A DNA stretch of 64,000 nucleotides, taken from Pantanalinema sp. Its GTDB lineage: Bacteria > Cyanobacteriota > Sericytochromatia > S15B-MN24 > UBA4093. The stretch's first letter is position 1, and each line of letters starts with the position of its first letter. The position numbers and the translations under genes were made by a program. The stretch covers positions 971-64,970 of the forward strand of contig DATNQI010000019.1 in assembly GCA_036704125.1 (NCBI GenBank), in the 5' to 3' direction. Below are positions 13,486-61,268 of the stretch, one piece after another. A model generated the notes under the pieces. That model searched no databases. It worked only from the letters and a program-made list of their open reading frames with translations, and was not told the origin of the DNA.

Positions 13486-14391
13486 ATGACCGACTCCCCG
13501 ATCCTGATCTACGCCTCCGCGGCGCCGCGCGACTGGGTCGCGCGGGTGTTCGAGGCGGCGGGGTATCGGGTCCTGGCGGCCTCGAACGGCCTGACCGCCC
13601 TCGATCAGGCGACCCGGACCACCCCCGCCATGATCGTGGCCGATGCGCGCTTGCCCGGTATCGACGGGGTGGAGGTGTGCCGGATCCTGAAGGGCATGTC
13701 GAGCATGCCCTTCACGCCGATCGTGCTGATCGAGCCCTCGTGCGCGGAGGTGGGCGAGCATGGCCGCTATTCCGAGGCCGACGACGTGTGGATCGCGCCG
13801 AGCACCCCTCAGGAGGTCGCGGCCCGCCTCAAGCTGCTTCAGCTGCGCCTGGATCGCCTCGCCGCCCTGCGCGGCGATCGCGATCGCCTCTACGAGCTGG
13901 CCTACCACGACCACCTGACGGGCCTGCCCAACCGCCGCTTCCTGGACGGGGCCCTGGCCGACGCGCTGGTCGATGCGCGCGCCCATGATCGGCCCATGGC
14001 GATCCTCCTGTTCGACGTGGATCGGTTCAAGAGCATCAACGATCGCTGGGGCCACCCGGTGGGCGATCGGGTGCTGCAGGAGATGGCGGAGGTCCTGCGC
14101 CGCAGCTCGCGCCGCCGGGACGTGATAGGGCGCTTCGGGGGCGAGGAGTTCCTTTACCTCTTGCCGGGCCACCCCCTGGACGAGGCGGTCCTGCAGGCCG
14201 AGCGGGTGCGCTCCGAGCTCGCCGCGCACCCCTTCTCGGCCCCCGACGAGGACGTGTGCCTCACGGTGAGCGTGGGGGCCACCGAGGTTCGGGGCGACGA
14301 CACGCCCCACTCCGTCCTCGTGCGGGCGGATCGCCTGCTCTACGAGGCCAAGCGGGGCGGCCGCAACCGGATCGTCTCTTTGAGAAGCTAG
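13486..14391 (+). CDS. response-regulator receiver fused to GGDEF diguanylate cyclase (PleD/WspR-like)
   Basis: REC domain (…MIVADARLPGIDG…) and a GGDEF domain with an intact GGEEF motif (RFGGEEFLYLL). An alternative in-frame ATG at 13471 is possible. Confidence 0.8.
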   Translation: MTDSPILIYASAAPRDWVARVFEAAGYRVLAASNGLTALDQATRTTPAMIVADARLPGIDGVEVCRILKGMSSMPFTPIVLIEPSCAEVGEHGRYSEADDVWIAPSTPQEVAARLKLLQLRLDRLAALRGDRDRLYELAYHDHLTGLPNRRFLDGALADALVDARAHDRPMAILLFDVDRFKSINDRWGHPVGDRVLQEMAEVLRRSSRRRDVIGRFGGEEFLYLLPGHPLDEAVLQAERVRSELAAHPFSAPDEDVCLTVSVGATEVRGDDTPHSVLVRADRLLYEAKRGGRNRIVSLRS

Positions 14392-16664
14392 CCCTGCAGG
14401 CCGGGCTGCCAGAGCCCGACCCTGGAGCCCTGGACCATGGCGCCGTACTTGGCGAGGAGCCCCGGCAAATCGGAGGTCGGGTCGCCGCCCCAGACCGCGG
14501 CGATGACGTCGTGGTCCGGCCGCGCCCAGCTCCGGTACAGCTCGAAGGCGTCGCGGGGCCGGTCGGAGGCCTCGAGGGCGCGCATGAGCCCCTGCACCAT
14601 CACCCCCTCGGCGATCTTCGCGATCTCCTTGCTCGGCGTCTGGCGGCTCGTGCCGAGGCGCTTGGGGGTCGTCTCGGCGCGGATCGCCTCGCGCTCGGCC
14701 TCGGTGATCCCGTAGAGGTCGAAGACCCGGGCGTCGATCGCCTCGAGGGCCTCGAGGGCGCGCTTGCGCCGAAGCTCCATGGCCGAAAGCCGCTCCTTGG
14801 CGGCCGCCTCCAGGGCCTCGGGGGTCTCCCAGAGCGTCTCGGCGATCGTCGTGCTGAGGTCCCAGCGCGAGGTCTGCGAGAGCCAGTCGAGGACCAGGGC
14901 TGCGTCGCCCGCGATGGCGCGCTGCTCTCGCTCGGTCGCGATCAAGAGGGGCAAGGATCCGAGCGTCGGCGTGTCCAGGTGAAGGGTGAGCTGCGCCTTG
15001 TTGGCGATGACCAGCTGGAAGTAGGCCTCCAAGAGGCGCGAGTTGAGCAGCGCGAGCAGGTAGTGAGGGTTCCAGTCCGACTGGGGCTCGAGCACGTTGA
15101 CGGTGTCGAGCGGCAGGCTGCCCGAGGGCAGGAGGGTCGCGACCACGGCGCTCGCGATGTTCTGGTAGACGATCCGAGGTGAGGAGAGCACGCTCGAGAG
15201 GAAGCGATCGCGCAGGGCGTAGCGGGGGCTGAGGCGCAGGAGGCCCTCGTCGCCGCCGTAGCGCCGGATGTCGCGGCCCCTGACCACCGGGGTCCCCTCG
15301 CTCCACAGGGCGATCGCGCTCTCCCTGGCCGAGATGCCCGCCCCGCGCCGGATCCAGGCCAGGTGCTGCAAGGGGACGCCCGAGACCTCGACCTTGGTGA
15401 TCCAGCCGCCGCTGGTGCGGTTGGCGTAGATCGGCATGGTCGGGCGGTTGCGGAAGAAGCCGTGGCTCTGGGTGCCCAGCTCGCGGAACGAGCCGTCCCG
15501 GAAGGAGTCGAGGCGCACCTCGCCCTGGTCGTCCGGCGCCCAGGGCAAAGCGGCGTTCGAGAACCTGGCCTGGCGGTGCTCGGCGACGAAGGCGATCGTC
15601 TCGAGGTTGACGCCGGGGAAGGCCGCGCCGAGATCCAGGAGGGCCGTCAGCTGCATGTCCTCGACCAGGAGCCTGCGGCACTCGTAGTAGGCGCCGGTGC
15701 GGGTGACGCCGTGGGGGACGACGAGCCCCAGGCGGCCCTTGGCGCGCAGCAGGCGCGCGGATCGCTCGATGAACAGGGCCGTGGTGTCCTGTCGACCGCT
15801 GCCCAGGCGGTAGTGGCGCTGGAAGAAGTGCTTGTCCTGGCTCGAGATCTCGGCCCCGTAGGGCGGGTTGCCCACGATCACGTCGAAGCCGGGCTCGAGG
15901 GTCGCGTCGTGCTGCTGGAGGGTGTTGCGGCCGAGCAGGTTGGCTTTGAGGGGCACCTTGAGCTCGGGCACCAGCTTGAGCTGGACGAAGGCCAGCCGGA
16001 TCTGGGCGAGCTTGAGGGCCCAGGGGTTGAGGTCCACGCCGAACAGGTGGCGCCCCATGACGCGCTTGAGGCGCAGGTAGCGGCCCTCGGCGCCGGTCTG
16101 CGAGGTCCAGACCCGCTCGAAGAGGGCCTCGAGCGAAAGCGACAGGAAGTTGCCGGCGCCGCAGGAAGGATCGAGCAGGCGGAAGTCCTTGGAGAGGGGC
16201 AGGTGCCTGGGCGGCAGGGTCGCCTCGAGCAGGTAGGTCACGATGGGCGCCGGGGTGTAGAAGGCGCCGTGCTTCTTGCGCTGGACGCTCGAGAGGTGGG
16301 TCTCGAACAGGCCGCCCAGCAGTTCGCCGTCCTCGTAGCCCCATTGCTGGGCCGAGAAGAGGTCGTGCAGGGTCTCGGTCAGCTCCGGCACCGAGGGGGC
16401 GCCGAGCTTGAGGGGCAGGGGGGCCGCGTCCGCGAACAGCGGGGTCTGGTCGCCGCCCAGGCCGCTCAGGGTGTCGAAGAGGGCCTTCTCGAGGGCTTCG
16501 CGATCGCCCGGGTGCTGCAGATGGCAGAACAGGGCGTTCGCCAGCACGAAGCAGGCGGCGGGCGGCTCGTGGACCGACAGGGCGTCGGCCAACAGGGCCA
16601 CGCCGTGGGTCAGGAGGCCCTCCTTGGAGAGCTCGGAGCGGGTGCGGGGGCTCGTGGTCTGCAT
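14388..16664 (-). CDS. solitary gamma-class N6-adenine DNA methyltransferase (Eco57I/TaqI-like N6_Mtase with C-terminal TRD)
   Basis: Motif X/I (GAFYTP…DPSCGAGNFL) and motif IV (NPPYG) in gamma order, with a long C-terminal target-recognition region and no PD-(D/E)XK or HsdR-like nuclease N-terminus. ATG at 16662-16664; the track ORF begins with TTG at 16700. Confidence 0.8.
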   Translation of the reverse strand: MQTTSPRTRSELSKEGLLTHGVALLADALSVHEPPAACFVLANALFCHLQHPGDREALEKALFDTLSGLGGDQTPLFADAAPLPLKLGAPSVPELTETLHDLFSAQQWGYEDGELLGGLFETHLSSVQRKKHGAFYTPAPIVTYLLEATLPPRHLPLSKDFRLLDPSCGAGNFLSLSLEALFERVWTSQTGAEGRYLRLKRVMGRHLFGVDLNPWALKLAQIRLAFVQLKLVPELKVPLKANLLGRNTLQQHDATLEPGFDVIVGNPPYGAEISSQDKHFFQRHYRLGSGRQDTTALFIERSARLLRAKGRLGLVVPHGVTRTGAYYECRRLLVEDMQLTALLDLGAAFPGVNLETIAFVAEHRQARFSNAALPWAPDDQGEVRLDSFRDGSFRELGTQSHGFFRNRPTMPIYANRTSGGWITKVEVSGVPLQHLAWIRRGAGISARESAIALWSEGTPVVRGRDIRRYGGDEGLLRLSPRYALRDRFLSSVLSSPRIVYQNIASAVVATLLPSGSLPLDTVNVLEPQSDWNPHYLLALLNSRLLEAYFQLVIANKAQLTLHLDTPTLGSLPLLIATEREQRAIAGDAALVLDWLSQTSRWDLSTTIAETLWETPEALEAAAKERLSAMELRRKRALEALEAIDARVFDLYGITEAEREAIRAETTPKRLGTSRQTPSKEIAKIAEGVMVQGLMRALEASDRPRDAFELYRSWARPDHDVIAAVWGGDPTSDLPGLLAKYGAMVQGSRVGLWQPGLQG

Positions 16665-16793
16665 GCTCCCATTATCCGGCGCCGCCCGCACGGGTGGCAA
16701 GGGGCGCTTTTCGGCGGCGGGCGCGCTTAACGGGCCTTAACAGAGCGGAGCGAGGGTGCTACCATGCCCTCGCGCGAAGGAGGCGTCCATCAC

Positions 16794-24696: not shown

Positions 24697-24719
24697 TAAC
24701 TGTCGTTAAAAAACAGTTA
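24697..24719. promoter_or_regulatory. perfect palindrome TAACTGT-N9-ACAGTTA (operator-like) upstream of clostripain-like gene
   Basis: 7-bp inverted arms around an AT-rich centre (cgttaaaaa), 60-83 bp upstream of start 24636. Confidence 0.4.
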
Positions 24720-24740
24720 AAAGTGCTGCGAGGCGGATCC

Positions 24741-27582: not shown

Positions 27583-27783
27583 GGGGGCTTCCCTTCTACC
27601 TGTGTCGAGACCTCGAAGCGTCCATTATAGCGCGGAAAGCCGCCGCGAGCGAACCGAATCGGATCCCTGAATTTTAGCGTCGTCTTAAACTCTGCTTAAG
27701 AAAGATCCCCGGCGATCCCTGCGATAGTTCTTGCAGATTTCATAAACATTTCGTCCCGTCCATCTTCGGAAGGAGCGTCCGGT

Positions 27784-38214: not shown

Positions 38215-39216
38215 GTGCCAAAACCCAAGACCATCCAGCTCCGCCTCAAGAGTCAGGCGCAGATCCTCTCCGCCTTCGTGTCCGCCTTCAGGCGGACGCT
38301 GATCACGCACAAGCCGGCGCCGTCCGACCACGAGCGCCTGGCCGAGATCGAAGAAGGGGCCATGCGGATCTGGGCCCACAACGTCTGTTTGTACTTCGAC
38401 GACGACGTGGTCCTCAGGCTCAAGGACTTCGTCGCCGATCTGCAGGTGCTGGATCCGACCACGCCCTTCATCCCCGAGCTCAAGGACTCCTACGTCATCA
38501 ACATCCGCGAGGGCCAGATCCGGCTGAGCGCCGCGAGCCTCGAGGCGCTCATGGGGCGCTACATCCTGCCTTCGGCGGGCTCGCCCCTCAAGGATGCGCG
38601 CCTCTCCATCTCGGGCGATCGCATGATCCTGCGGGCCAAGGCCCGCAAGTTCGGCCTCGACGTGCCCATCACCATGGAGTGCGAGGTGAGCGTGGGGCCC
38701 GAGGGGATGATCGAGCTCTTGCCGCAGCGCCTCGCCGTCTCCGAGGTCGGCATCGGCGGCATGATCAAGCTCTTCAACCTGGAGCTCGACCGTCTGCTTG
38801 AGATCCCCCCGGACGCCCCCCTGCGCGTGTCGGGCAACCAGATCACCATCGATCCGGCGGGGATCTTCCCCTCGCCCAAGGCGATCGGCCGCCCCACCGC
38901 GGTCCGGATCGAGCGCGGCGAGCTGGTCCTCGCCTACTCCGGCCCCGCGCCCGCCGAGGCGGCGCCCCTGCTCGACCCCCAGGCCCCCAACTACATGGTC
39001 TGCATGGGCCACGATCTGCTCGTCGGCAAGATGATGATGCACGACGCCCACTTCCAGATCGTCAACCAGGATCCCGCCTCGCACCTGGACTTCTCCCTCG
39101 ACCACTACCGCTCGCAGCTGGCCGCGGGCAGCAGCTCGCTGCACGCCGGCGACCAGCTCCTGGTGCGCCTGCCCAACCTGGGGCCCTCGACGCGCGGCGG
39201 GACCGGCCCGATTTAA
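38215..39216 (+). CDS. hypothetical protein (no recognisable domain)
   Basis: A 333-aa ORF with typical codon usage and a GTG start directly after the -10 element. Confidence 0.5.
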   Translation: MPKPKTIQLRLKSQAQILSAFVSAFRRTLITHKPAPSDHERLAEIEEGAMRIWAHNVCLYFDDDVVLRLKDFVADLQVLDPTTPFIPELKDSYVINIREGQIRLSAASLEALMGRYILPSAGSPLKDARLSISGDRMILRAKARKFGLDVPITMECEVSVGPEGMIELLPQRLAVSEVGIGGMIKLFNLELDRLLEIPPDAPLRVSGNQITIDPAGIFPSPKAIGRPTAVRIERGELVLAYSGPAPAEAAPLLDPQAPNYMVCMGHDLLVGKMMMHDAHFQIVNQDPASHLDFSLDHYRSQLAAGSSSLHAGDQLLVRLPNLGPSTRGGTGPI

Positions 39217-39345
39217 CGGCCGATTTAACGCAAGTTTTGCCTAAGCTTACAGAGGCTTTAGGATCCCTTCCGCAACTCCCCCGGCCGGCACGGCGATATC
39301 TCTCTTGTCGAGGGCGCACGAATGCGCAGCTAGAGGAGAGAGCCG

Positions 39346-50905: not shown

Positions 50906-51610
50906 ATGGACGCCGGGTCCCAGGTCCCGAAGGCCCGTATCCTCATCATCGAGGACGAGCCCGACATCGCCGAGTTCATCGCCGCCGAGCTGCGCTTCGA
51001 GGGCTTCGAGGTGCGCGTGGAGGCGGACGGTGCGCGGGGATTGGTCGCCGTGCGCCAGGAGAGCCCGGACCTGGTGATTCTCGATCGCATGCTGCCCGGC
51101 ATGGACGGCCTCGAGATCTGCAAGCGCCTGCGCCGCGCCTCGGACGTCCCCATCCTCATGCTCACCGCCCGCGGCGACGTGGCCGACCGGGTCGAGGGCC
51201 TGAACAGCGGCGCCAACGACTACCTTCCAAAGCCCTTCGACCTCGACGAGCTGCTGGCGCGCGTCAATGCCCAGCTGCGCGCTCGCCGTCCCGCCCCCAG
51301 GCAATACTTCGAGGTGGGCGAGCTGAGCCTCGAGCTCGAGAGCCGCGAGGTGCGGCGCGCGGGCGAGGAGATCGCGCTGACCCCCAAGGAGTTCGACCTG
51401 CTCGCCTACCTCATGCAGCACGCCCGGCAGGTGAAGCCCCGCGAGCAGATCCTCCAGGCGGTCTGGGGCTACGACTTCGAGGGCGAGGACAACGTGCTCG
51501 AGGTCTACATCCGCTACCTGCGCAACAAGATCGAGCGCGAGGGCCTGCCCAAGCTGATCCACACGGTGCGCGGGGTCGGCTACGTGATCAAGGATCGTGG
51601 CGCCAGTTGA
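50906..51610 (+). CDS. OmpR-family response regulator
   Basis: REC domain (ILIIEDEPDI…LVILDRMLPGMDG) and a winged-helix trans_reg_C domain (…LTPKEFDLLAYLM…VRGVGYVI). Confidence 0.9.
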   Translation: MDAGSQVPKARILIIEDEPDIAEFIAAELRFEGFEVRVEADGARGLVAVRQESPDLVILDRMLPGMDGLEICKRLRRASDVPILMLTARGDVADRVEGLNSGANDYLPKPFDLDELLARVNAQLRARRPAPRQYFEVGELSLELESREVRRAGEEIALTPKEFDLLAYLMQHARQVKPREQILQAVWGYDFEGEDNVLEVYIRYLRNKIEREGLPKLIHTVRGVGYVIKDRGAS

Positions 51611-52995
51611 GCATCCGCCTGCGTCTCACCCTGCTCTTCGTCGCGCTGCTCGCGGCGGTGGGACTCGCCCGCAGCATCGCGGTCCTGGAGGGCCTCTCGA
51701 ACACCCTGCACGGCATCGCCCTTTCCGACGCGCACAGCCGGATCCGGCAGCTTCGGGACTACCTGGCGCTGCGCCATGCCGAAGAGCACCGCCTGGGACG
51801 CAACCTGCGCCTCGACCGCCCCGAGGCCCTCCCCCGCGCCTTCTCCGACGACGGCATGCTGCTTCAGCTCACGGCCCCCGACGGCCGGATCCTCAACCGC
51901 AGCGCCAACCTGCGCGCCTCGCGCCTGCCGCTCCCGGCGCATGCGGGGAGCCGGGCGGTCTCGCTCTCGCTCGGCGGCACGTCGCCGGAGCGCCTGCTCC
52001 TGGTCTCCGAGCCCCTGCAGCTGGGGCACCATGGCCCGGCCGGCTGGATCCAGGCGGCCTACCCGCTCGACGCCATCGACCGCACCACGCACCGCATGAC
52101 CCTGGTCGAGCTGGGGGTGGGCCTGGCCTCGCTCGTCCTGGCCTTCGCGGTCGGCTACTTCTTCGCGGGGCGGGCCCTGTCGCCGGTCGCCGCCATCACC
52201 TCCGAGGTGGGGCGCCTGACCCGGCGCGACCTGCATCGCCGCCTGGAGGTGGGCCCTGCGCCCCACGACGAGATCGATCGCCTCACCCTCACCTTCAACG
52301 GCCTGTTCGATCGCCTCGAGGAGAGCTTCGAGGCGCAGCGGCGCTTCGTGGCGGACGCCTCGCACGAGCTGCGCAGCCCCCTGACCGCCATCCACGGCCA
52401 TCTGCAATTGATCCGGCGCCGGGGCGACGCGAATCCCGAGCAGGCCAAGGTCTGGCTCGAGACCGCCTCGCGCGAGGTGGGGCGCCTGATCCGCCTGGTC
52501 AACGAGCTCCTGGACCTGGCGCGGGCCGAGGGACAGGCGCTGATCGCAGCCCCCGCGCCGGTGGAGCTCGGGGCGCTCGCGCGCGAGGTGGCCCTCCAGT
52601 TCCAGGTGATCGCCCCGCGGATCCGCGCGGAGGTGGGCGCACCGCTCTGGGTGCGCGGGGACGAAGATCGCCTGCGCCAGGTGCTGATCAACCTGGCGGA
52701 CAACGCCGTGCGCGCCACCCGCGACGGAGGCGACGTGCGGATCGAGGTCAGGCGCGAGCACGACTCGGCCCTCGTCGTGGTCGCGGACACCGGCGGCGGC
52801 ATCCCGCCCGAGCGCCTGGAGCGGATCTTCGATCGCTTCTACCGGCTGGATGCCGCCCGCGGCAGGGAGCGCGGGGGGGCGGGTCTGGGCCTGTCCATCG
52901 CCCAGGCCATCGTGCGGGCCCACCGGGGCGAGATCTCGGTCGAGAGTGCCCCGGGGCAGGGGGCGCGCTTCACCATCCGCCTGCCGCTGGCCTGA
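51607..52995 (+). CDS. sensor histidine kinase (HAMP + HisKA + HATPase_c), cognate of the OmpR-family regulator
   Basis: Probable TTG start overlapping the regulator stop. Two TM segments, H-box ADASHELRSPLTAI and N/G boxes (…LINLADNAVRAT…GGAGLGLSIA…). Confidence 0.75.
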   Translation: MSIRLRLTLLFVALLAAVGLARSIAVLEGLSNTLHGIALSDAHSRIRQLRDYLALRHAEEHRLGRNLRLDRPEALPRAFSDDGMLLQLTAPDGRILNRSANLRASRLPLPAHAGSRAVSLSLGGTSPERLLLVSEPLQLGHHGPAGWIQAAYPLDAIDRTTHRMTLVELGVGLASLVLAFAVGYFFAGRALSPVAAITSEVGRLTRRDLHRRLEVGPAPHDEIDRLTLTFNGLFDRLEESFEAQRRFVADASHELRSPLTAIHGHLQLIRRRGDANPEQAKVWLETASREVGRLIRLVNELLDLARAEGQALIAAPAPVELGALAREVALQFQVIAPRIRAEVGAPLWVRGDEDRLRQVLINLADNAVRATRDGGDVRIEVRREHDSALVVVADTGGGIPPERLERIFDRFYRLDAARGRERGGAGLGLSIAQAIVRAHRGEISVESAPGQGARFTIRLPLA

Positions 52996-53041: not shown

Positions 53042-55453
53042 ATGGCAATGGACGAAAAAACACTGAAGATGCTCGAGTGGCCCCGCGTCGTGGAGCTGCT
53101 CTGTGAACGCGCCACCACCGAGTCGGGCAAGGACCGCTGCAGGGCGATCGAGATTCACACCGACCTGGACGCCGTCTCCCACGCGCTGCGCCTGACCACC
53201 GAGGCCAGAGGGCTCTTGATCGAGACCCAGACCTTCCCCATGGGCGGCCTCCAGGATCTGCGCGGCGCCATCCGCCGGCTGGACCAGGGCGCGGACCTCG
53301 ACGGCCACGAGCTGACGGCGATCGCGCACACGCTGGTCGCCGCGCGCCGGCTCAAGAGCTTCCTCTCGGATCACGACGAGGAGTTCCCGGCGCTCGCCGA
53401 GCTCGGCGTGCCGATCGTGCCCCTGCCCAAGCTGACCGACGAGATCCTGCGCTGCTTCGACCCCTCGGGGGAGGTGGCCGATCACGCGAGCCCCGCGCTC
53501 GGCGCCATCCGCCGCAAGCTGCACGAGACCCAGGGCGAGATCCGCACCCGTCTCCAGCGCATGCTGCGCTCGCACGCGAACGCGCTCCAGGAGACGATCA
53601 TCACCATGCGCGGCGAGCGCTTCGTGCTGCCCGTGCGCTCGGACGCCAAGGGCCAGGTGCCGGGCATCGTCCACGACCAGTCCTCGACCGGCATGACCCT
53701 CTTCATCGAGCCCATGGCCGTGGTCGACCTGAACAACCAGGTCACCAAGGCCCACCTGGACGAGCGGGACGAGATCGCCCGCATCCTCGCGCGCCTGACC
53801 CAGCTGGTCTCGGCCAACAGCGAGGAGATCCGCTGGACCATGGAGGCCGTCGCCGAGATCGACTTCACCTACGCCAAGGCCCGGCTCTCCATGGCCCTCG
53901 ACGGCCACCACCCGCGCCTCGACCGCGAGGGCGCCACCGTCGTGTACGGCGCGCGCCACCCCCTCCTGGTGGCACGGGGGCTCTCGAGCGAGACCAAGGG
54001 CGCCAAGGTCGTCCCCATCGACGTGGGGGTGGGCGATCGCCACCAGGTGGTCGTCATCACCGGCCCCAACACCGGCGGCAAGACCGTCACCCTCAAGACC
54101 CTGGGCCTGGTCACCCTCATGACCCAGGCTGGCCTCCACCCGCCGGTCGCGCCCGGCTCCCAGGTGGCGGTGTTCCGCAAGGTCTTCGCCGACATCGGCG
54201 ACGAGCAGAGCCTCCAGCAGAACCTCTCGACCTTCTCGGGTCACATGCGCAACATCATCCGGATCACGACCTATGCCGACCACCGGACGCTGGTGCTCCT
54301 GGACGAGCTGGGCGCGGGCACCGATCCCCAGGAGGGGGCGGCCCTGGCGCGGGCCCTCATCGACGTGTTCATCGAGCGCGGCAGCCGGCTGGTGGCGACC
54401 ACCCACTACGGCGAGCTGAAGCTCTTGGCCTACGAGAAGTCAGGGATCATCAACGCCTCGGTGGAGTTCGACGTCAAGAGCCTCTCGCCGACCTACCGCC
54501 TCTTGATGGGCGTGCCGGGCCAGTCCAACGCCATCACCATCGCCTCGGCCCTCGGCCTTCCCCCCGTGGTGGCGGCCTCGGCCAAGGAGTACCTGAGCCG
54601 GGGCAAGGACGATGCCGCCGAGGTCATCTCGCGCCTCGAGGCCGAGCAGCACGCCGCCGCGGTCGCCCGCGCCGACGCGGACCGCAAGCTGGCCGAGGCC
54701 GAGCGCATGCGCGCCGAGTACGAGGCCAAGCTCGCCAACTGGAGCCAGGAGCGCAAGGACCTGCGCGAGAAGGCCCGCGACGCCCTCGACCAGGAGCTCG
54801 AGTCCGCCCGCGCGGAGATCGCCTCGGTCACCCGCGAGCTCCAGGGCGCCCGGACCGCCCAGACCGCCCAGAAGGCCCACGACCGGATCAGCAAGCTCAA
54901 GCACCGCATGCAGAAGACGGAGCGCCCGGCCAACACCGTCAACGCGCGCACGCTGCTGGTGGGCGATCGCGTCTTCCTGCCGCGCCTCAACCAGACGGGG
55001 ATCGTCCAGTCCCTGCCGGACGCGAGCGGCGAGGTCGTGCTCCAGATCGGGATCATGAAGGTGACGGCCAGGCTCGCCGAGCTGCAGATCGAGCCCAAGG
55101 GCGGTGACAAGGGCGCAAAGGCGGCCTCCAAGGCAAGCGCGCCGGAGCCCCAGGCCTTCAAGCCCTCCAGGAAGGCCGGCCGCTCGGGCGCCGAGGAGCC
55201 CGGCCGCCAGGCCGGGATGGAGATCGATCTGCGCGGCATGATGGTTCACGAGGCGATCACCGAGCTCGAAAACTTCCTCGACACGGCCATGGAGGCCGAT
55301 CTCAAGAGCGTCTGGATCATCCACGGCGCCGGTACCGGTGCGCTGCGCAAGGGGATCCGCGATCACCTGAGGACCAGCCCCTACGCCGCCTCGTTCCGAC
55401 CGGGCGGGCACGGCGAGGGCGGCGACGGGGTCACGGTCGTCCAGCTTTCTTGA
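53042..55453 (+). CDS. mutS2: endonuclease MutS2 (MutS-like ATPase with C-terminal Smr domain)
   Basis: Walker A (GPNTGGKT), the MutS2 core, a coiled-coil, and a C-terminal Smr (…DLRGMMVHEAITELENFLD…IIHGAGTGALRKGIRDHL…). ATG 53048 is an alternative start. Confidence 0.9.
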   Translation: MAMDEKTLKMLEWPRVVELLCERATTESGKDRCRAIEIHTDLDAVSHALRLTTEARGLLIETQTFPMGGLQDLRGAIRRLDQGADLDGHELTAIAHTLVAARRLKSFLSDHDEEFPALAELGVPIVPLPKLTDEILRCFDPSGEVADHASPALGAIRRKLHETQGEIRTRLQRMLRSHANALQETIITMRGERFVLPVRSDAKGQVPGIVHDQSSTGMTLFIEPMAVVDLNNQVTKAHLDERDEIARILARLTQLVSANSEEIRWTMEAVAEIDFTYAKARLSMALDGHHPRLDREGATVVYGARHPLLVARGLSSETKGAKVVPIDVGVGDRHQVVVITGPNTGGKTVTLKTLGLVTLMTQAGLHPPVAPGSQVAVFRKVFADIGDEQSLQQNLSTFSGHMRNIIRITTYADHRTLVLLDELGAGTDPQEGAALARALIDVFIERGSRLVATTHYGELKLLAYEKSGIINASVEFDVKSLSPTYRLLMGVPGQSNAITIASALGLPPVVAASAKEYLSRGKDDAAEVISRLEAEQHAAAVARADADRKLAEAERMRAEYEAKLANWSQERKDLREKARDALDQELESARAEIASVTRELQGARTAQTAQKAHDRISKLKHRMQKTERPANTVNARTLLVGDRVFLPRLNQTGIVQSLPDASGEVVLQIGIMKVTARLAELQIEPKGGDKGAKAASKASAPEPQAFKPSRKAGRSGAEEPGRQAGMEIDLRGMMVHEAITELENFLDTAMEADLKSVWIIHGAGTGALRKGIRDHLRTSPYAASFRPGGHGEGGDGVTVVQLS

Positions 55454-55479
55454 GCCGGTTAGGCCGGGGTTAATCCGAA

Positions 55480-55640
55480 CCTCCGACGGGGATCACGTGC
55501 GCGATGCGCGTGATCCCCATCACCGTCAGGGCCTGGATTTGCGCCCCTCGATGTCAACAAGTTGCGAGGGTGGTGAAATTTAATTTCAGTTTCCGGCGAA
55601 ATTAACTCATACTTAACGGTGGCCCGACAAGATCCCGCGC
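55480..55640. promoter_or_regulatory. AT-rich intergenic spacer with palindromes upstream of recombinase-like gene
   Basis: A 10-bp perfect IR (ggggatcacg…cgtgatcccc) and a gaaatttaatttc / gaaattaac AT-rich palindrome; GC is much lower than the surroundings. Confidence 0.35.
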
Positions 55641-55715
55641 CGTGCCCCGTATAAACACCTTGTGAACAGCGGGCTTGAATGAGAGCGGGCCCGGTGAGAC
55701 GTGAGGAGAGCGAAA

Positions 55716-56498
55716 ATGAGCAAGGTCGTCGGTTACATCTGGATGCACCCCGAAGCCATCAACGCCGAGAAGGTTCGCGCCGAGCGCCATGCGATCGAGG
55801 CCTACTGCGCGGCTCACAACCTCGCCCTGGACGGGATGCAGGTCGATGCCGGCGCCCTGGGCAACGCCCTCGAGCGGCCCGAGATGAAGGCGATCGCCGA
55901 GAAGTCCGAGATCACCGTCGTCGTCGCCTCGATGGTCAGCCTCGGCCGCCGCTTCCACGACGTCGCTACCGTGCTCGCCGAGTTCAACCACAAGGACATC
56001 CGCTTCATCAGCGTCGAGGAGAACATCGACACCGGCCGCCCCGACGGCCAGCAGCTCCTCAAGCTCTTCGTGACCATTCCCCAGGTCGCCAGCTGGGTCC
56101 GCGCCCCCAAGCCCGCCGCCGAGACCAAGGTCTTCGTCCGCAACCGCGAGGTGCTCCACAACGGCGGCACCTGCCCCTACGGCTACACTCTCGACGAGAT
56201 GACCAACCAGTTCGTCGTCAGCCGCACCGAGGCCGCCGTGATCCAGCGCATCTTCCACGAGCGCGCCGCGGGCCGCAGCCTTCGCCAGATCGCCAACGAC
56301 CTCACCCGTGATGCGATCGCCACCAAGCGCGGCGGCCGCTGGCAGGCCAACACCGTTAAGACCATCCTCGAGAACATCTTCTACACCGGCGACTACCAGT
56401 GCCAGGGCCGCCTCTACCCCAACGACCACGAGGCCGTCATCTCCAAGGACCTCTTCGCCCAGGTCAACTCGGCCCAGGAGATCCTCCAGGTCTGCTAG
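55716..56498 (+). CDS. serine-recombinase-like protein lacking the catalytic serine, truncated (resolvase-like domain + recombinase domain only)
   Basis: The resolvase fold is conserved (…VVVASMVSLGRRFHDV…DIRFISVEENIDTGRPDGQQLL…), but the nucleophile motif (G/A)YxRVS(T/S)xxQ is replaced by VGYIWMHPE. A large-serine-recombinase 'Recombinase' domain follows (GGTCPYGY…IANDL…KRGGRWQANTV…IFYTGDY), and there is no zinc-ribbon/coiled-coil C-terminus. GAGGAGAG precedes ATG 55716. Confidence 0.65.
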   Translation: MSKVVGYIWMHPEAINAEKVRAERHAIEAYCAAHNLALDGMQVDAGALGNALERPEMKAIAEKSEITVVVASMVSLGRRFHDVATVLAEFNHKDIRFISVEENIDTGRPDGQQLLKLFVTIPQVASWVRAPKPAAETKVFVRNREVLHNGGTCPYGYTLDEMTNQFVVSRTEAAVIQRIFHERAAGRSLRQIANDLTRDAIATKRGGRWQANTVKTILENIFYTGDYQCQGRLYPNDHEAVISKDLFAQVNSAQEILQVC

Positions 56499-56536
56499 GC
56501 AGCTCTCACGCTCTCTCTCAAACAACGCTCTCTCAA

Positions 56537-56577
56537 CCCTCGGGGGGCCGACTCAGTCGGCCCCCCGAGGGTTTTAT
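56537..56577 (+). terminator. rho-independent terminator
   Basis: ccctcggggggccgac-tca-gtcggccccccgaggg followed by ttttat; preceded by the direct repeats acgctctctc x2. Confidence 0.85.
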
Positions 56578-57385: not shown

Positions 57386-57871
57386 CTAGGCTTCGAGGAG
57401 CTTGAAGAAGGTCTTGCCCATGACGATCTCGTCACCGGCCTTGACCAGCTGCGGGCTGCCCGGCATCAGTCGCGGGCCGCGGTTGACGTAGGTGCCGTTC
57501 AGGCTGCCGAGGTCCTCGACGAAGTACTCGCCCTCCTCGACGAAGAGGCGCGCGTGCTTGCGCGAGATCTTGGCCTCGGCGTCGTCCGAGGTCAGATCGA
57601 CCTCGGGGAAGGATCCGCCGTCCGGATCCCAGCGGCCGACATGGGTCTCGCCCGAGATCTCGAGAACGAACTCCTTGCCGACGGTCCCGCCGCGGGTGAT
57701 GACCAGCTTGGCGCGGTAGCTCGCGGGTGCTCCGAGCGTTCCCGGCTGGGGGTACGAGGCGGCGACATCCGAGGCGGGGACGCTCGAAACGAGCTCCAGC
57801 TTCGCGCCGCACTCGTCGCAGAACTGGATGCCCGACTGGTTTTCGTGGCTACAAGCCGTGCAGACGCTCAT
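57386..57871 (-). CDS. zinc-ribbon + FHA domain protein
   Basis: N-terminal CxxC…CxxC (CTACSHEN…CDECG) and a C-terminal FHA (…GRWDPDGG…DLTSDD…SRKHARLF…GSLNGTYVN). Confidence 0.8.
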   Translation of the reverse strand: MSVCTACSHENQSGIQFCDECGAKLELVSSVPASDVAASYPQPGTLGAPASYRAKLVITRGGTVGKEFVLEISGETHVGRWDPDGGSFPEVDLTSDDAEAKISRKHARLFVEEGEYFVEDLGSLNGTYVNRGPRLMPGSPQLVKAGDEIVMGKTFFKLLEA

Positions 57872-57881
57872 CGCTTTCCCC

Positions 57882-58241
57882 CTAGGCCTGGAAGAACTTG
57901 AAGAAGGTCTTGCCCATGACGATCTCGTCGCCGTCCTTGATGGCCTGGGGGCTGCCGGGCAGGAGGCGCGGGCCGCGGTTGACGTAGGTGCCGTTGAGGC
58001 TGCCGAGGTCCTCGACGAAGTACTCGCCGTTCTCGATGAAGATCCGCGCGTGCTTGCGCGAGATCTTGGCCTCGGGGTCGTCCGACGTCAGGTCCACCTC
58101 GGGGAAGGCGCCGCCGTCCGGGTCCCAGCGGCCGATCAGCGTCTCGCCGCCGGTCTCGACGGCGAACTCCTTGCCCACGGTCCCGCCGCGGGTGATGACC
58201 AGCTTGACCGTGGCGGCGATGGAATTCGTGGTGTCGCTCAT
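57882..58241 (-). CDS. FHA domain protein (tandem paralog of the downstream FHA gene)
   Basis: A stand-alone FHA ~85% identical to the FHA of 57386..57871 (KLVITRGGTVGKEF…ISRKHARIF…GDEIVMGKTFFKF). Confidence 0.8.
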   Translation of the reverse strand: MSDTTNSIAATVKLVITRGGTVGKEFAVETGGETLIGRWDPDGGAFPEVDLTSDDPEAKISRKHARIFIENGEYFVEDLGSLNGTYVNRGPRLLPGSPQAIKDGDEIVMGKTFFKFFQA

Positions 58242-58293
58242 CCTGGGGTTCTCCTCATGAATGCGGTGGGGGGCGAAAGGAAAGAGGTGAGAT

Positions 58294-59955
58294 CTAGGAA
58301 TACTCGGCGAGGTTGACCAGCACGACGGTGATGTTGTCCTCGCCGCCGCGCTGGTTGGCCAGGTTCACCAGCTTGCGGGCCGCGAGGTTGGGCTCGGCGG
58401 CGTTGATGACCACCTCCTGCAGCTCCTCGTCGGAGACGTGGCCCGTGAGGCCGTCGCTGCACAAGAGCAGCCAGTCCCCGATCTTGAGGGGCCGCTGGTA
58501 CAGGTCGACCTCGACGTTCGGGTAGGTGCCGAGCGAGCGATAGATCAGGTTGCGCTGCGGGTGGATCGCCGCCTCCTCGAGGGTGATCTGGCCGATCTCG
58601 ACCAGGCGCCCGACGAGGCTGTGATCGCGCGACACCTTCTCGATGCCCTCGCGGTTGATCAGGTAGGCGCGACTGTCGCCCACGTGCCCGATGAAGACGT
58701 TCTGGCCGAAGACCAGAGCGGCGGTGACGGTGGTGCCCATCCCTGAGAGGTCCGCGTTGTGGCGGCCGGTCTCGTAGATGCGGGAGTTCGCGTTCTTGAT
58801 GGCCTGCTGCATGGCCGCGCGGATCTCCTGGGCCGGGTCGTCCACCCCCTCGTTGAGGTTGACCAGCGCCTCCTGGACGTGCGAGGTCACGGCGTCCACG
58901 GCCAGAGCGCTCGCGATCTCGCCCGCGTTGACCCCGCCCATGCCGTCGGCGACCACGTACAGCCCGAGCCCCGACTGGGTGGACTGGGTGGTGAAGGTCA
59001 GGTCGAAGACCGCGAGGCTGTCCTCGTTGCCCGTCCGGACGATGCCCACGTCCGAGCAGTGGCCGGCCCGGCGCTGGGGGTTGTTGATCAGGGCGAGCAG
59101 GTGGGCCTTGAGCTCCTGCACCGTCTCGAAGCGATCGTCGGGATCGGGCGCGAGCATCTTGCGGACGATCCGCTCGATCTGCGGGTGGATCGCCTCGTTG
59201 AACGCGCTGAGGTCCGGCAGGTTGAAGCGCGTCTCCTCGTTGGGCCAGTAGCTCTCGGGGGAGTTGCCGGTGAGCAGGTAGTGCCACAGGGCGCCCAGGG
59301 CGTAGATGTCCGAGCGCTCGTCGACCTTGCCGCTCAGGTACCCGAACTGCTCGGGCGGCGAGTAGCCGGGCGTCGAGTCGGTGGGGACGGGGCAGGGCAG
59401 GATGGCGGCGCGGTGGAAGCCCGTGAGGCGCACCCGCTGGAAGTCGGGGGTGACGACCACGTAACGGGGCTGCAGGTCCAGGTGCAGGATCTGCCGGCGG
59501 TGGAGCTGGCCGATGGACTGGCACAGCTGGATCATCCAGTCAAGGGACTGCTGGACGCCGATGGCGGTGCCGTTGCGCAGGAGGTAGGCCAGGTCGCGCC
59601 CCTCGAGCTGCTCGATCACCAGGTAGGCGCGATCGCTCGCCTTGAAGATGTCGAGGGCCTTGACCACGGTCGGGTAGGAGACCGAGCGCAGGATCAGGAA
59701 CTCGTTCTGCCAGGGGTTGTCCCAGGCCTTCTCCGCCCACTCGCTCTCGGGCAGGGCGCTGGTGCTGGCCTCGTCCTCCTTCTCCTTGACGATGACCACG
59801 AAGCCCGTGGCCTGGTCGATCGCCCGGTAGAGGTTGGCGCCGTTCTTGTACTCGAGGAAGCGCTCGACCGCGTAGCGGTTGGCGAGCAGGGTGTCCGCTT
59901 CGAGCGGCGCAAGGGGGCTGGTCGCGGAGCCGCGGTCGGAACGAGGCGAGGTCAT
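58294..59955 (-). CDS. pseudokinase-like domain fused to PP2C (PPM-family) Ser/Thr phosphatase
   Basis: The N-terminal kinase-fold domain has degenerate motifs: there is no GxGxxG loop, the catalytic loop reads HLDLQP instead of HRDLKP, and DFG is replaced by TGF. The C-terminal PP2C domain has an intact metal-binding motif set (VADGMGG, HVGDSRAY, LLCSDGL, GGEDNITVV). AAGGAG lies 8 nt before ATG 59953-59955. Confidence 0.75.
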   Translation of the reverse strand: MTSPRSDRGSATSPLAPLEADTLLANRYAVERFLEYKNGANLYRAIDQATGFVVIVKEKEDEASTSALPESEWAEKAWDNPWQNEFLILRSVSYPTVVKALDIFKASDRAYLVIEQLEGRDLAYLLRNGTAIGVQQSLDWMIQLCQSIGQLHRRQILHLDLQPRYVVVTPDFQRVRLTGFHRAAILPCPVPTDSTPGYSPPEQFGYLSGKVDERSDIYALGALWHYLLTGNSPESYWPNEETRFNLPDLSAFNEAIHPQIERIVRKMLAPDPDDRFETVQELKAHLLALINNPQRRAGHCSDVGIVRTGNEDSLAVFDLTFTTQSTQSGLGLYVVADGMGGVNAGEIASALAVDAVTSHVQEALVNLNEGVDDPAQEIRAAMQQAIKNANSRIYETGRHNADLSGMGTTVTAALVFGQNVFIGHVGDSRAYLINREGIEKVSRDHSLVGRLVEIGQITLEEAAIHPQRNLIYRSLGTYPNVEVDLYQRPLKIGDWLLLCSDGLTGHVSDEELQEVVINAAEPNLAARKLVNLANQRGGEDNITVVLVNLAEYS

Positions 59956-59972
59956 GGCTCGTGGCTCCTTTC

Positions 59973-61190
59973 TTAACGGGCGAGCATCCACCAGAGGCCG
60001 GCCGAGATCACGAGGGCGGCCGCGACGGCAGCCCCCGCGATCAAGAGGCGCCTGGGGAGGGTGGGGCGCTCGGTCCGGCCGGTGGCCTTGGGACGACCGA
60101 GGTGGCCCGTTGCGGCCCGGTAGATCTGGCTGGACGTGGAGGCGTGGTGGGCGGCGATGTAGTTGCGGCAGTGGGGGCAGAACTGGCGGCCCTTGGAGAT
60201 CTGCTCGCCGCAGTGGGGGCAGGTGCGCACGGCGTTGCTCGCCTCGCCTCCCACGCGGATCAGGGCGACCAGCATGTCGTCGGCACTGGCGTAGCGCTTC
60301 TCGATGTCGGAGTCGAGGGAGCGCATGACCAACTCCTCGGTCGCGTCCGTGACCTCGGGGTTGAGCTGGCGCACGGGCGGGAACGAGAAGGGGGCCTCGT
60401 TCTGAGGGTCGCGCCCGGTGAGCATGTAGTGCATGGTCGCCCCCAGCGCGTAGAGGTCGGTGCGGGGCTCGACCTGGCCGCGGTACTGCTCGGGGGGCGC
60501 GTAGCCCTGGGTGCCGATCATGGTGCCGCGGGCCGTGGGGTTGAAGAAGCGCGCGATGCCGAAGTCGACCAGGTAGATCTTGCCGAACTCGGTGAGCATG
60601 AGGTTGGCGGGCTTCATGTCCCGGAAGATGATGGGCGGCTTCTGGTGGTGGAGGTAGCTCAGCACGTCGCAGACCTGGATGGCCCAGCCGATCACGCTCT
60701 TCTCGTCGAAGGGGTTGTTGGACTGCTCGCAGATCCGGGCCTCCAGGTCCGAGCCGTTGATGTACTCCATCACGATGTAGTGGCGGTTCGACTCGGTGAA
60801 GCGGTCGAAGACCTCGGGGATGGAGTTGTGCTTGAGGCTGGCGAGCATGTCCGCCTCGCGGTAGAAGTTCTGCATCGCCGTCTCGCGCTGCTCGCCATCG
60901 GCGAAGTGGTCGAGCATCTCCTTGACGACGCAGACCTTGCTCGAGAAGCGGGTGTCGTTGGCCAGGTAGACGGCGCCCATCCCCCCCTGCCCGACGAGCT
61001 GGGTGATGCGGTACCGGTCCTGCAGCAGGGTCGAGGGCGACAGCAGGCCGCTCGCGCCCACCGAGCCCGCGGGCTGGGTGACGTGCGAGCTCGAGTGGGT
61101 CGCGGTCACCGCCCCCTTGAGGGGCTTGCCGCAGTCGCAGCAGAAGCGGTTCTCGGCGTTGTTATCCGTCTGGCAGTTGGAGCAGATCAA
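59973..61190 (-). CDS. Ser/Thr protein kinase flanked by N- and C-terminal zinc ribbons, C-terminal TM anchor
   Basis: Active Hanks motifs are present (GQGGMGAVY, VCVVKEM, FRDMKPANLML, DFG, APPE). It has an N-terminal CxxC…CxxC, a C-terminal CPHCG…CPHCR and a terminal TM helix. The start is probably TTG 61188-61190, with GGAGG ~11 nt upstream. Confidence 0.8.
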   Translation of the reverse strand: MICSNCQTDNNAENRFCCDCGKPLKGAVTATHSSSHVTQPAGSVGASGLLSPSTLLQDRYRITQLVGQGGMGAVYLANDTRFSSKVCVVKEMLDHFADGEQRETAMQNFYREADMLASLKHNSIPEVFDRFTESNRHYIVMEYINGSDLEARICEQSNNPFDEKSVIGWAIQVCDVLSYLHHQKPPIIFRDMKPANLMLTEFGKIYLVDFGIARFFNPTARGTMIGTQGYAPPEQYRGQVEPRTDLYALGATMHYMLTGRDPQNEAPFSFPPVRQLNPEVTDATEELVMRSLDSDIEKRYASADDMLVALIRVGGEASNAVRTCPHCGEQISKGRQFCPHCRNYIAAHHASTSSQIYRAATGHLGRPKATGRTERPTLPRRLLIAGAAVAAALVISAGLWWMLAR

Positions 61191-61268
61191 CTTAGGGGGA
61201 ACCTCCGCAGCCGCGGGGTGCCGAGTGGCGCCCGTCGGGACAGCTTGGGCATGGTCTTGGGCCAGGAG

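Follow-up and report, generated by a model that had tools for sequence, protein, structure and literature searches.

A single-copy gene of Sericytochromatia descended from a large serine recombinase and lacking its catalytic residues and zinc-ribbon region

We have analyzed a stretch of 64,000 nucleotides (contig DATNQI010000019.1 of assembly GCA_036704125.1, called the window below) from Pantanalinema sp., a bacterium assigned to the Sericytochromatia, the non-photosynthetic relatives of the cyanobacteria, and describe here the interval from 55454 to 56577, in the numbering of the 64-kb window, which holds a single gene together with its own control regions. The gene, located at 55716-56498 on the forward (+) strand, encodes a protein of 260 amino acids (aa) that is a large serine recombinase by its fold and ancestry, yet fails to be one by its catalytic residues, by the lack of a zinc ribbon and coiled coil, and by its genomic context, which is not mobile. 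Comparisons among sequences indicate that it is kept in single copy, and under purifying selection, throughout the Sericytochromatia sampled, and we conclude with strong confidence that it is a functional host gene. The interpretation that we favor, at a probability of roughly 0.6, is that a large serine recombinase was exapted long ago and that its descendant binds specific DNA sequences without catalysis. Serine recombinases are familiar as the active enzymes of phages, of transposons and of a few host switches. An initial reading of this DNA (the original prediction) had described the gene as catalytically dead and truncated, and as either a relic of an integrated element or a domesticated DNA-binding derivative, with a preference for retention.

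Active site, domains and point of truncation

The coding sequence runs from an ATG at 55716 to a TAG at 56496-56498, and the N-terminus of its product reads MSKVVGYIWMHPE. The resolvase fold and the 'Recombinase' domain that had been assigned to the product were both borne out. In Pfam searches, PF00239 (Resolvase) was matched at aa 19-121 (E = 3.9e-11), the match beginning at profile position 15 and leaving the segment of the catalytic serine unaligned, and PF07508 (Recombinase) was matched at aa 171-253 (E = 1.1e-20). An AlphaFold2 model (33 family sequences) had a mean predicted local distance difference test score (pLDDT) of 88 and a predicted template modeling score (pTM) of 0.50, the latter being no surprise for two domains joined by a floppy linker. 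The best matches of this model in the PDB, by Foldseek, were the SPbeta, Bxb1, phiC31, TP901-1 and A118 integrases, with a template modeling score of 0.76, normalized to the target, for the N-terminal domain of TP901-1. Serine integrases were also the best PHROG matches, and the best NCBIfam match, with 67 bits where the cut-off is 900, was CcrB. The resolvase-fold N-terminal domain (aa 1-128; 55716-56099, + strand) contains a remodeled, inactive catalytic pocket (W9, H11, P12, R54, V74, S75 and G77-R78-R79-F80-H81-D82) and, by the alignments and the model, a shortened helix E at aa 109-128 that includes I121-P122-Q123. It is followed by the interdomain linker (aa 129-156; 56100-56183, +), with pLDDT values of 55-74, no secondary structure and variable alignment columns, and by a Recombinase DNA-binding domain of about 100 aa (aa 157-260 plus the stop codon; 56184-56498, +), which carries the near-invariant block GRSLRQIA...TKRGGRWQANT(V/I)KTILEN.FYTG.

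The active site was compared in an alignment of 98 family members with nine canonical recombinases (L-INS-i), checked against an HMMER alignment to the TP901-1 integrase; canonical residues are numbered here as in gamma-delta resolvase. Three of these residues remain: Tyr6 (Y7 in the window protein) is kept across the family, Arg45 (R54) in 98 of 98 members, and Arg71 (R78) in 96 of 98. The position of Arg8 is occupied by a tryptophan (W9; Trp in 96 of 96 members), and that of the nucleophile, Ser10, by H11, with a family composition of S in 38 members, A in 15, H and N in 12 each, P in 9, Q in 4, and T and E in 2 each. Thr11 corresponds to P12 (proline in 85 of the 98), Asp67 to V74, at a variable position whose eight commonest residues (A, S, I, N, L, G, Y and V) do not include Asp, and Arg68 to S75, which is S, A, D or N across the family. 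Directly after R78, the residues R79-F80-H81-D82 are newly invariant, and in helix E the motif AE.ER has become IPQ, with the acidic and basic residues of the helix gone. The alignment with canonical recombinases confirmed the predicted replacement of the nucleophile serine and its neighboring arginine, and the loss proved wider than had been stated, extending to Asp67, Arg68 and the helix-E residues. Judged by these residues, the product cannot carry out serine-recombinase chemistry. The family can be recognized by its length of about 260 aa and by the signature GY.W..P, LGRRFHD, IPQ and GRSLRQIA...TKRGGRWQANT.KTILEN.FYTG, all of which the window protein has; among 146 further representatives retrieved by profile search, Trp at the Arg8 position was limited to family members.

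We also considered whether another start codon or frame would restore an RVS motif. Because an in-frame stop lies directly upstream of the ATG and the GY.W..P N-terminus is common to 37 orthologous loci, no alternative start does so, and this possibility was ruled out.

The missing zinc-ribbon and coiled-coil C-terminus, the other element of the predicted truncation, was likewise verified. Only 6 residues follow the final helix of the Recombinase domain, and the protein stops where the linker to the zinc ribbon would be; no zinc-ribbon domain was matched by Pfam in the 260-aa protein, nor was HTH_7 or HTH_38 matched significantly. A search for a zinc-ribbon or coiled-coil remnant showed that canonical integrases match only to about their own residue 260, where the Recombinase domain ends, with nothing past the stop codon, and that neither the window nor the locus flanks hold a zinc-ribbon remnant. 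Nearly all orthologues end at the same place as the window protein. Assignment to the small serine recombinases (about 180-200 aa, with a short C-terminal helix-turn-helix) was ruled out by the Recombinase domain and by the lost catalytic residues.

It should be noted that short two-domain proteins with an intact YxRVS[TS] motif exist, so that truncation alone does not set this family apart; what is unique is the combination of truncation, catalytic loss and class-wide retention. Many such proteins (P0104, P0126, P0137, P0108 and others, 250-300 aa) have an intact YxRVS[TS]...DRLSR and end right after the Recombinase domain, and are either metagenomic fragments or natural 'medium' serine recombinases that lack a zinc ribbon. 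Two larger, multi-domain recombinase-like proteins, P0105 (847 aa) and P0114 (662 aa), contain several Recombinase domains and the motif YTRVNT or YTRINT, in which Asn stands at the position of the nucleophile serine, and may represent another catalytically inactive serine-recombinase lineage.

Distribution, inheritance and selection

A search of 5.8 billion proteins returned 97 homologues with E < 1e-39, at 34-94% identity to the query, nearly all of them 250-300 aa in length, the exceptions being three shorter fragments. Below this family there is a gap down to ordinary recombinases at E of about 1e-9, and in a profile search of 1.84 billion representatives the family likewise stood above a continuum of normal integrases. 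Members of the family are annotated publicly as 'recombinase family protein' or 'DNA invertase Pin-like'; the label of recombinase or integrase should not be applied to them.

A scan of one genome per species identified 35 full-length loci in 35 assemblies, with one copy in each. The genomes are labeled Sericytochromatia, Tanganyikabacteria, Blackallbacteria, 'Cyanobacteria bacterium' or 'bacterium' in 33 of the 35 cases, and the other 2 loci lie on short contigs, L020 (DATNPP010000160, 'Oscillatoriaceae') and L037 (DATNQJ010000237, 'Stenomitos sp.'). Both are likely to be binning errors in public assemblies. L037, whose product is 77% identical to the window protein, keeps the synteny with mutS2, and its mutS2 is of the Sericytochromatia type; by these sequence features the contig has almost certainly been mis-binned.

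The mutS2 gene lies directly upstream in 16 loci and in L049. In the loci compared, identities to the window for the recombinase-like protein and for MutS2 were 80 and 78%, 75 and 61%, 76 and 54%, 67 and 46%, and 59 and 36%, respectively; the recombinase-like protein was always the more conserved of the two, and both diverged in step. This parallel divergence, at higher identity than MutS2, argues for vertical inheritance under strong constraint. Ratios of nonsynonymous to synonymous substitution rates (dN/dS) in close orthologue pairs were 0.03-0.24. The distant members of the family adjoin housekeeping genes (argS, rpoC2 or dnaG) or radical-SAM and cytochrome genes, and among the family loci no neighbor is conserved across the class, the conserved ones being clade-limited (mutS2 and genes for FHA proteins and kinases).

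The codon usage had been described as native and the open reading frame as intact, and both descriptions hold: G+C content at third codon positions (GC3) is 0.94 in this gene, the same as in its neighbors, and the frames are intact in the orthologues as well. Retention of the gene as a domesticated derivative, one of the 2 possibilities offered originally, is strongly supported by the equal length across the class, the purifying selection, the divergence parallel to that of mutS2, and the GC3.

DNA binding, the TTAA boxes and alternative readings

In the structure of the A118 integrase bound to attP, the recombinase domain contacts 13 bp, and helix H reads A-T pairs through Tyr207 and Asn208 (PMC3783163). 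We observed that N212, which is invariant in the family, aligns with Asn208 of A118 (in an alignment made through a canonical integrase), and that the Recombinase domain is the most conserved part of the protein, its block remaining near-invariant even at 35% overall identity. From the near-invariant recognition block and the equivalence of N212 to Asn208, we infer that the product is a sequence-specific DNA-binding protein whose target has stayed unchanged across the class.

The N-terminal domain, for its part, is not merely decayed. Its fold persists, as do two of the arginines that bind phosphate and 20 residues of helix E, and around the former active site further residues have become invariant. 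Taken with the structural model, these features suggest that the domain serves for oligomerization and provides a new binding pocket. We propose that the gene derives from a phage- or element-type integrase whose zinc-ribbon/coiled-coil C-terminus and catalytic residues had disappeared by the time of the common ancestor of the Sericytochromatia sampled, and that it has since been inherited vertically as a chromosomal gene in single copy. The Recombinase domain, with its helix-turn-helix core and almost invariant recognition helix, would bind a specific DNA, probably one with an A/T core; the N-terminal domain would give oligomerization through the shortened helix E; the remodeled, still basic pocket (R54, R78, R79, H81 and W9) would bind something without cutting it; and the protein would function as a DNA-binding factor in transcription or in DNA architecture. 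The gene is monocistronic. With its class-wide conserved promoter and TTAA boxes spaced by 11 bp, it would belong to a regulon with secreted peptidases and lipoproteins, and the protein may itself control this TTAA-box regulon.

The low G+C content (GC) predicted for the upstream spacer was observed: at 55550-55649 it drops to 0.51, compared with 0.69 over the whole window. The AT-rich palindromes that had been described there were not; instead, the spacer contains TTAA direct repeats with 11-bp phasing and then a conserved promoter core. Four 11-bp boxes, ATTTAATTTCA, GTTTCCGGCGA, AATTAACTCAT and ACTTAACGGTG, form a direct-repeat array at 55578-55621 (+), a putative Pho-box-like operator. Three of the four carry TTAA (starts at 55580, 55602 and 55613), with the consensus yTTAAy and with CTTAAC in the proximal box; of the 22 TTAA sequences in the window, no others form a triple. 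The array is located one helical turn upstream of a -35-like element that belongs to a putative promoter core at 55627-55655 (+), consisting of ACAAGA, 17 nt and TATAAA, whose function is assigned from its position and conservation. The pattern [GA]CAAGN-N17-[GT]ATAAN could be read by eye in 28 of 38 upstream sequences, from high-GC and low-GC lineages, among them the distant loci L002, L030-L034, L036 and L038; it was not seen by eye in L014-L016, L019, L021, L035 and the AT-rich L001 and L026-L029. Boxes and promoter appear as phylogenetic footprints in an otherwise diverged spacer. A generic sigma-70 scan of the spacer gave no match, and no Rfam family reached threshold in the spacer or anywhere in the window. 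The proximal box sequence CTTAACGGTG (55612-55621) has a perfect 10-bp reverse-complement copy at 56351-56360, over the invariant N-T-V-K codons of the recognition helix, which is probably due to chance.

Similar arrays were found elsewhere. The window has four further TTAA pairs spaced 10-12 bp apart, at 16727-16741, 24706-24721, 27685-27700 and 39213-39229, which lie upstream of and co-oriented with genes for a CYTH protein, a C11 peptidase, an EF-hand protein and an S8 subtilase, respectively. In other family loci, independent TTAA(C) arrays occur at L018:8496, L022:8529-8560 and 8772, L023:8605, and L024:4664-4695 and 4840, ahead of and co-oriented with the genes for an M14 carboxypeptidase/NHL-protein pair and for two lipoproteins. 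Over 304 kb of high-GC family loci, TTAA-to-TTAA spacings of 11 bp and 22 bp were observed in 26 and 13 cases, many of which are the homologous promoter of the recombinase-like gene, whereas no other spacing up to 40 bp occurred more than 3 times. The peak at 11 bp was absent from control loci of other phyla and from the low-GC Sericytochromatia loci. The intergenic region upstream of the CYTH gene, which carries one of these pairs, is shared with a divergent gene for an Eco57I/TaqI-type N6-adenine methyltransferase with a TaqI-like specificity domain (14391-16736, - strand).

By their sequence and spacing, the TTAA arrays look like the operator of a regulon, similar to the Pho box. The Pho box of Synechocystis SphR consists of at least 3 repeats of CTTAACCT, each of 8 bp with a 3-bp linker (PMC1906773), and the upstream array described here, with four 11-bp units of which three carry TTAA, has that layout. 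The cyanobacterial Pho box shares with it the 11-bp period, the direct repeats, the number of units (3-4) and the yTTAAy core. It differs in that the array in the window lies upstream of the -35-like element rather than replacing the -35, and in that the other genes bearing arrays encode peptidases, EF-hand and CYTH proteins and lipoproteins, and are not known pst or pho genes; no pst or pho gene was found in the window or in the family loci. The window does contain genes for an OmpR-family response regulator and a HAMP/HisKA sensor kinase, at 50906-52995, directly upstream of mutS2. We considered this pair as PhoB/PhoR and rejected the assignment: its matches are below the equivalog cut-offs, and heavy-metal and MtrA types (also NblR) match about equally. 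The simplest reading of these arrays is that a PhoB/OmpR-type regulator would control the gene and a set of secreted proteins; a more interesting one is that the boxes are bound by the recombinase-derived protein.

Were the recombinase-derived protein itself the binder, it would be an autoregulated master regulator, repressing or activating the promoter of its own gene along with a regulon for secreted hydrolases and lipoproteins, which we regard as a possible, rather unlikely, arrangement. In its favor, among the high-GC lineages that have arrays, the largest and best-conserved one (3-4 boxes) stands at this gene's own promoter, as is typical of an autoregulated factor; the recognition helix and the TTAA cores are both invariant; N212 is equivalent to the A118 asparagine that reads A-T pairs; the occurrence of about 10 independent arrays in roughly 300 kb suggests a global factor; and no TTAA is found upstream of the OmpR-family regulator gene of the window. 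Yet head-to-tail 11-bp repeats placed just upstream of a -35 are the textbook layout of the PhoB/OmpR family, the box matches the SphR sequence CTTAACCT, and a resolvase-type N-terminal dimer would be expected on inverted half-sites, not on direct repeats. An extended form of the same idea, in which the protein would be a class-wide transcription factor that regulates its own gene and a regulon of secreted peptidases and lipoproteins, and uses the former active site as a sensor pocket for a ligand or phosphate, is put forward only tentatively, the odds being against it. If it were correct, no earlier case would be known of a serine recombinase that has been domesticated by its host in a catalytically inactive form, and the proteins would make up a new family of regulators that bind DNA.

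Several points weigh against exaptation to a sequence-specific DNA-binding regulator. The one conserved neighbor, mutS2, is confined to one clade, and no neighbor hints at a pathway. Most of the genomes are incomplete metagenome-assembled genomes, so that the gene may not be universal in the class. Another role, such as ligand sensing or protein binding, could explain why the N-terminal pocket is so strongly conserved. A PhoB/OmpR-type response regulator would suit the TTAA boxes at least as well as this protein does, which leaves the idea of autoregulation weak, and the 11-bp TTAA phasing is undetectable in the low-GC lineages.

An improbable alternative to exaptation as a DNA-binding factor is that the protein is the non-catalytic partner of an active serine recombinase encoded elsewhere, which it would target, inhibit or direct through mixed oligomers, as a regulatory subunit or decoy. 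Heteromeric serine recombinases exist, for example CcrA/CcrB, and it was CcrB that gave the best NCBIfam match; also, the N-terminal fold and part of helix E, that is, the oligomerization surface, are retained. Helix E is, however, cut to about 20 residues and contains an invariant proline, no second, active recombinase was found in the window or in the flanks of family loci that we examined, and conservation across the class beside housekeeping genes would be hard to reconcile with a mobile partner.

We give very little credence to the view that the protein is still an active recombinase or nuclease with a non-canonical nucleophile or active site. The retention of Arg45 and Arg71, the persistence of a basic pocket, and a serine at the nucleophile position in about 39% of members could be cited for it, but that position is otherwise H, A, N, P, Q, T or E, and is by this variation unconstrained; none of Arg8, Asp67 and Arg68 remains; the zinc ribbon and coiled coil that would serve in synapsis are missing; and neither recombination sites nor an invertible or excisable segment is evident.

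The other possibility offered by the original prediction, a decaying remnant of an integrated element, that is, a pseudogenised integrase with att scars as its flanking repeats, could draw on the missing zinc ribbon and coiled coil, the lost catalytic residues and the short repeats on both sides of the gene, but it is already contradicted by the data and merits almost no weight, since about 100 orthologues, with few exceptions similar in length, retain an intact frame, dN/dS is low and the protein is more conserved than MutS2, new invariant motifs have arisen, promoter, Shine-Dalgarno sequence and terminator are all conserved, element genes and an empty site are absent, and the flanking repeats prove to be a hairpin distal to mutS2 and an element of the UTR (untranslated region), both described below. 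The intact frames, the dN/dS of 0.03-0.24 and the mutS2 synteny also rule out pseudogene status. In the window and at the family loci examined the gene has housekeeping genes as neighbors; we found no mobile-element genes there and, in looking among relatives for an empty site or a full-length orthologous integrase, neither of the two. Att-like repeats flanking a larger island, for which ACGGGGTCACG at 55425 and 56634 may serve as an example, were ruled out, as the short direct matches that flank the gene (9-11 nt) lie inside coding sequence or hairpins and are at chance level. Phage and plasmid collections contained no family member, the best matches there being ordinary integrases of less than 30% identity, and PADLOC gave no match to a defense system.

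Related systems and other features of the locus

The large serine integrases (phiC31, Bxb1, TP901-1, A118, SPbeta SprA and CcrB) share with the family PF00239, PF07508 and the recognition-helix asparagine, and the Recombinase domain of the family aligns with those of A118 and SPbeta. In contrast to those enzymes, the family has no constraint on the nucleophile, has Trp for Arg8, has lost Asp67 and Arg68, and has a short helix E with a proline; it also lacks the zinc ribbon and coiled coil, att sites and a mobile element, and is inherited vertically. The Tn3 and gamma-delta resolvases provide a regulatory precedent by binding alone, being serine-recombinase-family proteins with binding sites in their own promoter; Tn3 resolvase represses its own gene from res. 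Resolvase, however, is active and transposon-borne, has a small C-terminal helix-turn-helix and acts on inverted half-sites, whereas the repeats at the gene described here are direct. The same logic, in which catalysis is lost, targeting is kept and the host retains the protein, applies to nuclease-dead domesticated proteins such as TnpB-derived repressors and to exapted transposases, although these belong to a different protein superfamily and the family described here uses no guide RNA.

A 2022 review of the recruitment of mobile elements in prokaryotes lists only catalytically active exaptations of serine recombinases (PMC8987985). In the limited collection of literature that we consulted, neither this family nor any inactive serine recombinase kept by a host lineage over the age of a class was described, which is absence of evidence only. 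If the DNA-binding interpretation holds, the Recombinase domain could serve as a stand-alone module for sequence-specific DNA binding, the protein would be a natural case of a rebuilt recombinase active site (Trp for Arg8, RRFHD, and the helix-E proline), and the Sericytochromatia would gain a lineage-specific core gene and a candidate regulon for study. There is also practical interest in engineering non-catalytic DNA-targeting scaffolds from serine integrases.

The 10-bp perfect inverted repeat that had been described upstream of the gene is real, and is part of a GC-rich hairpin with a 13-bp perfect stem at 55485-55521 (+), 32 nt past the mutS2 stop codon (-28.8 kcal/mol, z-score -4.8). It does not belong to the gene, nor is it an att repeat: its sequence is not conserved, L004 and L037 having other hairpins at this place and L005-L014 having none, and because relatives differ in this way, we interpret it as probably a 3' stem-loop of mutS2 that lies outside the recombinase-like gene.

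Between promoter and start codon, the 5'UTR can form a hairpin at 55670-55693 (+; -17.7 kcal/mol, z-score -3.05), the loop and 3' arm of which carry TGAGAGCG (55680-55687); it is conserved, with changes in the stem, in the near clade only. A Shine-Dalgarno sequence, GAGGAG, is found at 55703-55708 (+), 7 nt to the 5' side of the ATG, and GGAG or GAGG is present at this position in all near-clade orthologues. At the other end of the gene, the CT-rich direct repeats that had been noted are present, with two copies of ACGCTCTCTC at 56508 and 56525, but the attachment-site-like role suggested for them did not hold up. They are among three copies of (C)GCTCTC at 56502-56534 (+), the reverse complement of the GAGAGCG of the 5'UTR, a sequence that in the window also overlaps the Shine-Dalgarno region. 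The element is triplicated in the window and in the 94%-identical L052, is single-copy in L004, L037, L005, L006, L009 and L049-L051, and always lies directly before the terminator; it is a clade-specific UTR element and not an att site.

The complementarity between the 2 ends is preserved within the near clade. The 5' element TGAGAGCG(N) is the reverse complement of the 3' (N)CGCTCTCA, and the variable ends covary (GG:CC, A:T and TG:CA): the 5'UTR and 3' sequences are, respectively, GTGAGAGCGG and CCGCTCTCAC in L004 and L037, TGAGAGCGA and TCGCTCTCA in L005, and TGAGAGCGTG and CACGCTCTCA in L006. Complementarity equal to that in these four loci was obtained in 1-7 of 300 shuffles, and outside the near clade it is absent. 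From these covarying ends, the 5' and 3' ends of the mRNA may pair with each other.

The strong terminator predicted downstream of the gene was confirmed by folding: an intrinsic terminator at 56535-56573 (+), missed by a generic terminator scan, has a 19-bp perfect stem followed by TTTTAT (-41.5 kcal/mol, z-score -7.3), and the stem is kept in relatives through different sequences.

Farther downstream, at 57386-61268 on the - strand, the window encodes two FHA proteins, one of them with an N-terminal zinc ribbon, a Ser/Thr kinase-PP2C fusion, and a second kinase with a zinc ribbon; this FHA/kinase cluster is found downstream of the gene in eight loci, namely the window, L004-L006, L015, L016, L019 and L021.

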